Of a stretch of 64,000 nt of DNA, positions 1,232 through 62,824 are shown one piece after another (the stretch's first letter is position 1; every line of letters starts with the position of its first letter). The translations under genes and the position numbers were made by a program. The notes under the pieces are model-generated. The model saw only the letters and a program-made list of their open reading frames with translations, had not been told where the DNA came from and searched no databases. The DNA is from an uncultured Candidatus Rokubacteria bacterium (GTDB taxonomy: Bacteria; Methylomirabilota; Methylomirabilia; Rokubacteriales; CSP1-6). The DNA lies in NCBI GenBank assembly GCA_963771355.1, contig CAVYTA010000006.1:1056001-1120000 (forward strand). Reading direction: 5' to 3'.

Positions 1232-1380
1232 CTCGCCTTACCTGCGGCTCGCCCCGCTCGCTCCGCTCGCAAAGCATCTTCGTTTCCGCTCGCCTCGCCT
1301 TCGGCTGCGGCTCGCCCTCGCTCGCTCCGCTCGCAAAGCACTTTCGTTTCCGCTCGCCTCGCCTTCGGCTGCGGCTCGCC
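1232..1380 (-). repeat. Dispersed 61-bp element, locus A (two full units at 1256-1316 and 1320-1380 plus a partial unit)
   Basis: Near-identical direct repeats with 64-bp period, beginning 2 nt after the nrdJ stop. Confidence 0.9.
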
Positions 1381-28255: not shown

Positions 28256-29677
28256 TCAGGAAAACGCCGCCGCGCAGAAGCTGACCGTCCCCTCGGGGTC
28301 GGGCCACTGGCGGTAGCGGAGGAGGCGGCCGGGCGCTCCCGGGAGCACGCGAAGAAACGTGTAGATGGGGGAGAGCCCGCAGATGCGCCGCGCGTCGCCA
28401 TCGGCCGCCACCGACGCGAAGAAGGCGGGGGCGTCCGCGGCGATGACCGTCTCGAGCATGGCGCGATCCTCCCGCTCGACCTCGGCGAGGAAGGCCGACG
28501 TATTCGGCTCGGCGTCGCCGAAGCGCGGCCCCACGTGGGCCAGGTCCACCCCGCCCACCACGCAGACGCGGCGCGGAGAGGCAGCGAGCGTCTCGGCCAG
28601 GGCGCCGAGGAATCGCGGCACGCGCCCGTCGGCCTCGGCGCCCTTCCCCGTCCACACCGCCTCGTGCAGAAACGAGGCGAGCAGCGGCACCATGGTGAAG
28701 GGCCGGTCGCCGAGCGCCCAGCGCAGCATCACCGCCTGGAACTCGATGGAGTGCTCGACGCGATGCGCGCCTTCCGAGGCGAAGAGATCGCCGCCGTAGC
28801 GGCGGCCCAGCGCGTCGAGGAACTCGCGGTCCGCCGGCACCGGGCCCAGCGGCGTCTCGAAGGCCTTCACCGTGGCCGCGAACGGCTCCATCATGCCCGC
28901 GTGGCAGGTGCCCAGGACCACGAACAGGTCGGCATCGCATCGCTCCAGCACTTCCCGGTATGCCCACGCGTACACCGGCCCACCCCGGTGAAAATCAATA
29001 TGCGGCGCGAGGAGCCCGCGCAGTTGCGGGCTCCGAAGCCTCCCTATAGAGGTCGCCCCTTGGGGCGACCGTAGATCAAATCCAGGAGTTGCCGCCAACC
29101 CTTCCCGCGACGACGTCGGATCAAATCCAGGAGTTGCCGCCAACCCCTCCCACAACGACCCCGGATCAAATCTCCGAGTCGCCGCCGACTCCTCTCGCAA
29201 CGACGTCGGATCAAATCCCCGAGTCGCCGGCAACCCGTCGGGCGCCGATCCAGGCCCGTCGGCATCGGCGAAAAACCCCGCGATCTGCTCCCGCAGGGCC
29301 TCCGACTCGCCGGCATACGCCCCGCCCGCATGGGCCGCGGGCCGGGTGGGACTGGCCGCGAAGTCGGACTCGATACGCCGGCGGCGCTCGGCGAAGCGGG
29401 GGCTATCCAGGAAGCCCGCCTCGTCCAGTCGCTCCGCCACCGCGAGCACGTCCCCGGCGGTGAGGCCCCCGCCGTGCCGGGCGGCCACGATGTCGCGGAT
29501 CTCGTCGATCGCGTGATCGCCGTCGAACAGTGAGATCACGTCGAGAAGCGGCATGGGCAGCACCGCCACCTGGTCTGTGAAACCGGACGGATCGCGGAGG
29601 CCGATCATGCGCTGCCCGTCCTGCTGGAAGGGAAACGCCTCGAGCGAGCGAAGACGCGGCCGCTCGGGGAGGGTCAC
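28256..29677 (-). CDS. Memo-family (AmmeMemoRadiSam protein B) protein with N-terminal PqqD-like domain and internal repeat insertion
   Basis: HAGGAY, APHID, EHSIEFQ, DLAHVGPRFGD, ICG. Confidence 0.85.
   Translation of the reverse strand: MTLPERPRLRSLEAFPFQQDGQRMIGLRDPSGFTDQVAVLPMPLLDVISLFDGDHAIDEIRDIVAARHGGGLTAGDVLAVAERLDEAGFLDSPRFAERRRRIESDFAASPTRPAAHAGGAYAGESEALREQIAGFFADADGPGSAPDGLPATRGFDPTSLREESAATRRFDPGSLWEGLAATPGFDPTSSREGLAATPGFDLRSPQGATSIGRLRSPQLRGLLAPHIDFHRGGPVYAWAYREVLERCDADLFVVLGTCHAGMMEPFAATVKAFETPLGPVPADREFLDALGRRYGGDLFASEGAHRVEHSIEFQAVMLRWALGDRPFTMVPLLASFLHEAVWTGKGAEADGRVPRFLGALAETLAASPRRVCVVGGVDLAHVGPRFGDAEPNTSAFLAEVEREDRAMLETVIAADAPAFFASVAADGDARRICGLSPIYTFLRVLPGAPGRLLRYRQWPDPEGTVSFCAAAFS
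29044..29238. repeat. REP-like palindrome plus 4 x 45-bp tandem repeat, in frame inside the Memo gene
   Basis: GGTCGCCCC-TT-GGGGCGACC at 29051-29070; GATCAAATC recurs at 29074, 29119, 29164 and 29209. Confidence 0.9.
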
Positions 29678-34154: not shown

Positions 34155-35987
<1,833 letters not shown>

Positions 35988-36211
35988 TGCATTCGCGAGC
36001 GGAGCGAGCCCGGCGAGCCGCCGCCCGCAGTGGGAGCCGCAGCCGGAGGCGAGGCGACCCGCCGGTGATCGAGGCGAGCGGATACATGATGCATTCGCGA
36101 GCGGAGCGAGCGCCCGCCGGAGCCTGAACGCGCTTGCCGCGGGCGCGCGCCCGCTGCTATCATGTGGCGGCTTCCACGGCCCACACCGTTCGTTCAGCGG
36201 AGGCGACACCC

Positions 36212-61713: not shown

Positions 61714-61774
61714 CCTCGCTACGCTCGGCAACCCATTTTCGTATTGCTCGCCTCGCCTTCGGCTGCGGCTCGCC
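61714..61774 (-). repeat. Dispersed 61-bp element, locus C
   Basis: Divergent copy starting 3 nt after the moaA stop. Confidence 0.85.
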
Positions 61775-61777
61775 CGG

Positions 61778-62824
61778 CTAGCCACCTCTGGTGTGCATCT
61801 CCAGATGGGGGTCCCGCTTCAATTCCCCGATCTGGATGAGCGGCGAGCGGCCATCGGCCATGGCGAGCCGCTCCTCGGCGCCGCGGTCCCGGCGCGCCGT
61901 CCAGCCCGGCAGGATCAGGTCCCGGAGGGCGTCCCGTGACGCGCCCGCGCGGAGCGCCTTCCGCAGATCGGTGCCCTGGGTGGCGTAGAGGCAGAGGTAC
62001 CACATCCCGTCGGCGGTGAGGCGGCTCCGGTCGCAGTCCTGGCAGAAGGGCGCCGTGGTGGAGGCGATGATTCCGAACACATAGCCGTCGGGGAGCCGGT
62101 AGCGATCGGCGGGCGCGGAGCCCCCCTCGTTCAGGGGCTCGATGGCGCCGTAACGCCGGCTCAGCGTCTCCAGCATCTCGGCGCGCGAAACCACCCGCTC
62201 GCGGGTCCAGCGGGTGGCGCCGCCCACGTCCATGTACTCGATGAAGCGGATCTCGGCGGGCACCCCGCGCGCGTACTCGATCAGGTCCACCAGCTCGTCC
62301 TCGTTGGTGCCGCGCATGACCACGGTATCGAGCTTGGGCGCGGGGAAGCCCGCGCGGCCCACCGACGCGATCCCCTCGAGCACCTGCGGGAGCGCCTCCC
62401 GGCGGGTCAGCGCCTTGAAGCGGTCCGGTCGCAGCGTGTCGAGGCTCACCGTGACGCGATGGAGGCCGGCCCCGCGGAGCGCGGAGGCCCGCTCGGCGAG
62501 GAGGATGCCGTTGGTGGTGATGGCGAGGTCGCGGAGCCGCGGATGGGCGGCGAGGAGCCTCACCAGGCGCTCCAGCCCGTTGCGCAGCAGCGGCTCGCCT
62601 CCGGTCAGGCGCACCTTGTCCACCCCGAGATCGGTGAAGACGTCCACCAGGGCCGCCGCCTCCTCGAAGGTGAGGATGTCCTCGCGGGGGAGCCACACGT
62701 ACTCCTCCTCGGGCATGCAGTAGGAGCAGCGGAGGTTGCAGCGGTCGGTGACCGACAGCCGGAGATTCCGCAGCGGACGGCCGAGCGTGTCGCGCACGGG
62801 GATCACCGGCCCGGCCCCGCTCAC
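61778..62824 (-). CDS. moaA: GTP 3',8-cyclase (Moco biosynthesis)
   Basis: [13 protein letters not shown]...CLY, C-terminal GG. Confidence 0.95.

Follow-up and report, generated by a model that had tools for sequence, protein, structure and literature searches.

A REP-like miniature repeat in one family of Rokubacteria that may be read as a one-strand DNA hairpin with G·A pairs and a GNA triloop

Repeat units at three loci

The window (the whole 64,000-nt stretch of Rokubacteria DNA analysed here) carries a short repeat at three loci, adjoining genes identified with Pfam as a ribonucleotide reductase with a TSCPD domain, a sodium:solute symporter, and MoaA, in agreement with the nrdJ, SSS, and moaA neighbours of the original prediction. 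The four 61-nt units it described (1256–1316, 1320–1380, 35949–36009, and 61714–61774) were all found and share 47–59 of 61 bases, and the loops and the variant hairpin that it read at the third locus were confirmed. Locus A lies on the minus strand, where the core hairpin of copy 1 (1352–1379; GAA loop) has no mismatches to the commonest core. It is preceded by a 5′ leader remnant (1380–1385) that overlaps the TGA stop of the ribonucleotide reductase (1383–1385) and holds a conserved G at position −5 (1384), and is followed, within 1320–1351, by an A-rich spacer (1334–1351) and a GA/GA mini-hairpin at the 3′ end (1321–1333). A tandem second copy (1256–1316) repeats the core (1288–1315), spacer, and mini-hairpin (1257–1269), and a decayed third copy (1232–1252) retains the 5′ arm and part of the 3′ arm immediately ahead of the next gene.

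Locus B (plus strand; 35949–36009) consists of a core with a GCA loop (35950–35977) and a mini-hairpin (35996–36008). The unit had been placed at or after the symporter stop codon; it instead overlaps the end of the gene and supplies the stop itself, the core being read in frame as the final codons and the spacer giving TAA (35985–35987). A branched long variant follows (36013–36110) with an inner core (36032–36059; GGA loop) in which pair 2:27 is swapped to G-C, side inserts, and a mini-hairpin (36098–36110), and this variant was found again at other loci and in relatives. Locus C (minus strand; 61714–61778; core 61746–61773; mini-hairpin 61715–61727 with a GTA loop) sits between convergent moaA and DUF4197 genes, and its G at −5 is the final base of the moaA TAG.

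Extent and layout of the family

An iterated profile search of the host genome (5.53 Mb, 8 contigs, ~70% GC) returned 66 matches at 42 loci, of which 57 matches had E ≤ 1e-5 compared to none in the reversed genome; one weak match inside a gene (C6:1040083) was dropped as likely chance, leaving 41 loci. The core alone was found 60 times with ≤4 mismatches and never in the reversed genome, such that the repeat is a dispersed family far above chance. The copies of the proposed 61-nt unit are real, but conservation is concentrated in a 28-nt core, and many copies lack the 3′ hairpin. The unit of the family is this core with a variably shortened 5′ leader, an A-rich spacer, and an optional 3′ mini-hairpin, rather than a fixed 61-mer. 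The core (GC-GA-GCC-GCA-GCC-GNA-GGC-GA-GGC-GA-GC) has eight predicted Watson-Crick pairs, five predicted G·A pairs, and a C-GNA-G loop. The purine-rich spacer 3′ of it starts GRATA, and the mini-hairpin (C-GA-GC-GNA-GC-GA-G) was detected in 108 of 272 copies under a strict cut.

The leader varies in length, with 5′ ends of copies at preferred G positions (−18, −11, and −5). The longest form has GTCC as a block at −18 (in 13 of the 142 copies with long leaders), GYAG occurs at −11 in 32 of 181 first copies, and G occupies −5 in 177 of 181 first copies compared to 70 of 95 inner array copies. The letter at −4 covaries with core subfamily (p = 2e-6), which makes the leader, at least in part, a component of the element. 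Neighbouring cores ≤500 nt apart are arranged as head-to-tail arrays (22 direct, 1 inverted), and the tandem arrays carry duplicated flank letters.

Predicted fold and covariation

In 115 copies that were not selected by pattern, the four stem G·A steps hold in 107–114 copies, and the loop keeps its G (115/115) and its A (111/115) while N varies (A, 78; C, 24; G, 11; T, 2), as the original prediction of a GNA triloop had anticipated; across all core loops the GNA triloop is present in 254 of 262. Pair 6:23 is C-G in 81 of the 115 copies, G-C in 21, G·A in 11, and otherwise in 2, while pair 2:27 is G-C twice and T-A twice. Amongst 49 distinct cores, 95% of cells pair in the predicted register compared to 24–33% in slid registers, and 15 cells are changed on both sides compared to 4.5 in shuffled data, a value reached by none of 500 shuffles. 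The copies are non-independent kin and 12 of the 15 double-changed cells come from one pair, so that the covariation, mostly from one pair and a few lineages, represents few independent events. RNAalifold returns the same core register. Watson-Crick pairs take the place of the GA/GA step of the 3′ hairpin on both arms in 11 cases (9 + 2 copies), which indicates that the two GA dinucleotides face each other.

The covariation supports the predicted core and 3′ folds, in keeping with the proposed tandem G·A/GNA-triloop structure, but not the ‘middle stem’ that had been proposed to covary between them. This stem was rejected, as its bases also belong to the two hairpins, covariation was lacking across 86 distinct spacers (p = 0.23 and 0.76 on swapping partners), and it is no longer than stems formed with swapped partners. 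Energy-based folding as RNA or DNA on either strand (z = −0.9 to +2.0) gave no fold better than shuffled sequence, as expected for sheared pairs, and the predicted fold is invisible to palindrome finders and energy models alike.

The core would likely fold as single-stranded DNA, though it may instead fold as mRNA. The GNA loops alone form a very stable DNA mini-hairpin, the RNA counterpart of which is much weaker (PMC13037366), and tandem sheared G·A pairs within CGAG blocks have been shown in DNA by NMR (PMC10085684). Single-stranded DNA and RNA motifs are inseparable by sequence alone (PMC5737381), and the G·T wobbles at pairs 1:28, 2:27, and 7:22 and some GNRA tetraloop variants fit RNA equally.

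Position relative to genes and strand polarity

Genes were called with our own codon-model predictions and 78 flanking ORFs were scanned with Pfam. Of the 41 loci, 33 lie between genes (27 between co-directional genes, with 25 sense and 2 antisense, and 3 each at convergent and divergent junctions) and 8 lie inside called ORFs (5 sense and 3 antisense). The purine strand is the sense strand at 30 of 35 loci (p = 2e-5), a bias that persists after removal of the 13 stop-hugging loci (17 sense and 5 antisense of 22, p = 0.017) and that recurs at 80 loci in relatives (55 sense and 10 antisense, 55/65 sense; the remaining 15 convergent, divergent, or uncalled). Relative to the replichore, with strands assigned from GC skew, 21 loci are leading and 20 lagging. 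The purine strand follows transcription, not the replichore, and not always: the predicted sense orientation stands as a bias, but the claim that copies always follow a stop codon on the sense strand does not extend to the 5 of 35 antisense loci or to the 8 inside ORFs.

A stop codon is located within 4 nt of the element at 15 of the 41 loci. Among 63 loci with a clear upstream gene, the stop of that gene falls within 8 nt of the core at 31, where registers −4, −6, and −7 all place a G at −5, and the gene reads into or through the element at 20. The proximity to stop codons likely results from leader letters compatible with TGA or TAG around the near-invariant G, combined with selection against gene breakage. 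There was no notable enrichment at operon junctions, with 27 of 33 intergenic loci co-directional compared to a background of 65–76%. A ‘non-polar cassette’ in which a spacer ATG or GTG would restart the next gene was rejected as a rule (18 of 53 in frame; 20.7 expected), though at six loci there is no later start for the next gene than the one in the element spacer. At one locus (L213:2001–2100), the one start codon located in frame with the DNA polymerase III alpha gene lies in the spacer, and the gene gains a short element-encoded N-terminus in this genome (G000) and in two relatives (G002 and G005). Separately, 0.96 Mb around the inferred terminus (C6:1–960000) contains no copies compared to 7.1 expected (p = 4e-4, for a region picked post hoc), and sister repeat families do occur there.

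Constraint on the core at orthologous sites

At seven sites shared in 11 species pairs, 6 of 297 core positions outside the loop differ (2%), compared to 204 of 609 four-fold degenerate sites in the adjoining genes (33%). Because only copies with ≤5 mismatches were included, excluding decayed copies (e.g. two at the reductase site), and because the pairs share G000, this contrast is inflated, though large. The core is under constraint rather than simply junk. The loop base differs in 3 of the 11 pairs and the ungapped spacer at 36 of 110 positions, so that loop base and spacer drift at the neutral rate while the 28-nt core is nearly fixed. One core variant, which has a single copy in G000 that appears to lie in frame within a gene, persists at that site in G002, G003, and G005; this persistence speaks against simple homogenisation. 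The site-wise constraint is easier to reconcile with a host function than with a purely selfish element.

Distribution, gain, loss, and inversion

Exact core matches were searched across 185,579 species genomes and at least 116 stretches were found; among the 80 listed, the records were titled mostly Rokubacteria or Methylomirabilota. Records titled with other taxa accounted for 15 of the 20 loci checked, and all were Rokubacteria-like in protein identity (47–98% to G000); the 11 exact-match loci checked for GC content had 68–72%. These records are read as mislabelled Rokubacteria on the basis of this protein identity and composition. In a pattern search of 201 genomes of the phylum, the element occurred in 77 of 125 other genomes of the family (absent from 48), 3 of 18 from elsewhere in the order, and none of 57 outside it, with 0 to 67 copies per genome. 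The core had no match among 50,697 phage records, and 72,556 plasmids yielded just two 27-nt matches, at the level expected by chance. One 24-nt core match with a compensated pair (L265:1501–1524), the only one in IMG/VR, occurs among other GNA hairpins on an unrelated low-GC viral contig and may be due to chance. In line with the expectation of an uncharacterised family, Rfam gave no match at gathering score in the window (best E = 0.32, positions 1000–1600) and a single tRNA across 13 odd loci.

The empty orthologous sites that the original prediction had proposed to look for were found, and copies have been gained, lost, flipped, and tandemly amplified at orthologous sites. The reductase junction is intact in G000, G004, and G005, decayed in G001 and G003, and lacks the element in G006, G007, G010, and G011. 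At the moaA junction, G005 and G007 carry the element inverted, following the stop codon of the other gene, and in a single CtaA loop the copy is sense in G000 and G003 and antisense in G004 and G005, with G002 and G006 having none. In G000, the copies within hydantoinase, HPF, and CtaA preserve the reading frame, and empty orthologs of these genes exist; their insert junctions are ragged with some target bases replaced. An acyl-CoA dehydrogenase copy is in frame in G004, and in G000 the gene is split into two frames (L211:2001–2038), a split that may be an assembly error. Of 40 regions around the copies of relatives, 37 contained the core and 33 were syntenic, with 20 of these filled in G000 and 13 empty or decayed. 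The shared filled sites together with the empty, decayed, and inverted ones imply that copies are long-lived yet gained and lost. One comparison revealed a target duplication at 1 of its 13 empty sites; there was none at the reductase junction or at the intragenic filled/empty pairs. By adding short peptide inserts and new protein ends, the element matters for the annotation of Rokubacteria genomes.

Search for a mobiliser

The suggested link to HUH or RAYT enzymes was not borne out in the genomes and loci searched. No Y1 gene (PF01797) is present in G000 or seven congeners. Six of 31 relatives have such genes, as do 12 of 30 chosen carriers, and the element was found at none of 22 Y1 loci. 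Conversely, tblastn with three TIR-type Y1 proteins and an IS91 protein returned no TIR-type Y1 or IS91 gene at 238 element loci (516 kb). Neither IS110 (12 of 17 carriers and 11 of 17 non-carriers) nor IS91 (6 and 11) tracks the element, and no transposase families were detected among 78 and 147 scanned flanking ORFs (thresholds of 1e-8 and 1e-12). G000 has no reverse transcriptase, and its small GIY-YIG gene has no element copy beside it. An IS91-like Y2 transposase gene in G000 (L287; C7:796148–799819) was rejected as a mobiliser, as its end is a different repeat; this downstream end recurs ~12 times as a separate small repeat, mostly clustered on contig C7. Most of the Rokubacteria Y1 genes seen (L127–L135 and L290–L299) are solitary, encode ~300 aa, and are bracketed by GGGGTCAG inverted repeats, making them TIRtron-like in the sense used in PMC3733652.

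Comparison with known repeats

The element works like a REP but differs in tag, dimer, and RAYT association. As with GTAG REPs and BIMEs, it is a short, multi-copy, lineage-patchy hairpin near gene 3′ ends between co-directional or convergent genes, with stop-codon donation, intragenic copies, tandem amplification, and one-strand reading. In size and location it corresponds to a REP (28-nt core; 33 of 41 loci intergenic; 15 within 4 nt of a stop). Unlike GTAG REPs, however, GTAG is present at −5 to −2 in only 20 of 181 copies and GYAG in 42, rising to 67 of 181 with the −11 slot, which exceeds a background of 0–3 and is still a minority; 5 of the 13 pairs are G·A; the sense polarity is marked; the arrays are head-to-tail (22 compared to 1 inverted) where REPs are mainly inverted dimers; and no RAYT adjoins any copy.

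The gene-end location, TAG stop donation, and in-frame insertion are of an already known kind, having been reported for REP/RPE repeats, in which in-frame insertions occur in flexible protein loops (PMC3733652). The likeness to CGTC-tagged REP/RPE repeats includes in-frame insertions with empty orthologs and no known dedicated transposase (PMC3733652), and the longest leader starts with a GTCC block. In contrast to those repeats, CGTC lies within 12 nt in 1 of 181 copies, GTCC at −18 is confined to 13 of 142 long-leader copies, and there is no 8–9 bp Watson-Crick stem with a 4–5 nt loop (the G·A pairs break it), no CCA tail, and no head-to-head dimers. The element is set apart from the families in PMC3733652 by their description rather than by letter-by-letter comparison of consensus sequences.

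Its structural modules, a C-GNA-G loop and pyrimidine-GA-purine tandem mismatches, are shared with the GCGNAGC DNA mini-hairpins and CGAG blocks (PMC13037366, PMC10085684), and the frequency of its loop bases, with A commonest and T rarest, is the melting order of the mini-hairpins (PMC13037366). Those are described as structural motifs or single origin or promoter sites, whereas the element is a dispersed chromosomal family under site-wise constraint. In the literature outside subscription journals, no description of Rokubacteria repeats or of a G·A/GNA fold in a bacterial repeat was found. The present analysis adds a tested non-canonical fold, a replichore control, a nested leader, and site-wise constraint.

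Proposed mechanism and alternative readings

We give about an even chance to the reading of the element as a REP-like miniature repeat of one Rokubacteria family that acts as a one-strand DNA hairpin with G·A pairs and a GNA triloop. We infer that the purine strand does fold, that the hairpin is read as DNA and not at the mRNA level, that copies move by strand transfer, and that a protein binds them. The purine strand would fold once exposed, mostly as the non-template strand, and a putative enzyme would join a donor cut within the leader to a target sharing a few letters around the G. Such joining at short matches would leave ragged, duplication-free junctions and would allow the leader TGA or TAG to replace the native stop. 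Spread would likely occur as single-stranded DNA into the transcription-exposed sense strand near gene ends, with selection purging gene-breaking and probably many antisense inserts, slippage building and eroding arrays, and the core likely kept by a putative host or element protein that binds the fold. Precedents include single-stranded excision, variable cleavage sites, and R-loop single-stranded DNA proposed for BIMEs (PMC3333891), and recognition by TnpA-REP of one strand, a tag, and mismatches (PMC8266576). If the fold is read as DNA, the family would offer natural comparative evidence for chromosomal G·A-zippered single-stranded hairpins and point to a putative reader, and it is a compact test case for how REP-like repeats spread and persist without a RAYT.

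A hairpin acting in the mRNA after stop codons, as a nuclease barrier, processing site, or cause of ribosome stalling under host selection, with the GNA loop either protein-bound or a DNA relic, is possible though somewhat unlikely. The site-by-site constraint on the core, the sense bias that survives removal of the stop-hugging loci (17 compared to 5, p = 0.017), the upstream stops within 8 nt of the core at 31 of 63 loci, and the G·U-type changes at pairs 1:28, 2:27, and 7:22 would all suit it. The REPs of E. coli can work at the mRNA level; REPs within 15 nt of a stop are reported to stall ribosomes and REPs to stabilise mRNA (PMC12306157). Against such a role stand the antisense and intragenic copies, which retain the same core, and the 13 of 33 orthologous junctions where the element is missing or decayed. 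Selection on RNA usually yields GNRA tetraloops, whereas GNA triloops fill 254 of 262 core loops. A doubtful extension of the DNA reading is that the element is a host-maintained, G·A-rich single-stranded signal folding on the non-template strand at ~40 operon sites, read and spread by a putative non-RAYT protein together with sister repeats that share its 5′ GTCCG end and 3′ mini-hairpin.

The duplicated flank letters of the tandem arrays, the ragged junctions that replace target bases, and the failure of the searches above to find a mobiliser could also be accommodated by an enzyme-free repeat, driven by slippage and gene conversion, in which the cores would be alike through homogenisation and the polarity would come from selection against the C-rich strand, on which Rho would load. 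We consider this improbable, given that site-specific core variants and spacers persist across species, against wholesale homogenisation, that new sites in unrelated genes require a dispersal step, and that 5′ ends fall at preferred G positions (−18, −11, and −5). It is very improbable that the element is a MITE of a DDE transposase family that inserts at a short target (CTAG or a start/stop overlap, for instance) and duplicates it. One filled/empty pair (L456), at a junction that we take from its translation to be of the murA-hisG type, has the 5-nt start/stop overlap on both sides, but only 2 of 38 arrays have CTAG in the 20 nt on their 5′ side, both ends vary without terminal inverted repeats, the other filled/empty pairs have no duplication, and strong polarity is unusual for TIR elements. 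The CCGAAGG mini-hairpin of ssiA, which the core also contains (PMC13037366), raises a primase or primosome loading signal for replication restart (ssi/PAS type), to which we give hardly any weight, as the element has no replichore bias (21 leading, 20 lagging), is absent from 48 of 125 family genomes, and is lacking from the phage records and, chance-level matches aside, from the plasmids.

Sister repeat families

Three further repeat families were observed in the genome. A second family, present at six loci and in the window at 29030–29245, consists of a hairpin followed by a GTAGATCAAATC block and forms local 45-nt tandem copies; three of the other copies of this family terminate in a 3′ mini-hairpin identical or nearly identical to that of the element described above. 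The third (~13–19 loci; e.g. L234 at C5:650603) is a perfect G/C-rich hairpin that starts with the GTCCG block of the longest leader, and one copy bears the same 3′ mini-hairpin, such that end modules are shared across families. A fourth, longer hairpin family (~11–27 loci; e.g. C1:55195 and C5:125516) has, by eye, GA/GA mismatches in its stem and prefers convergent junctions.
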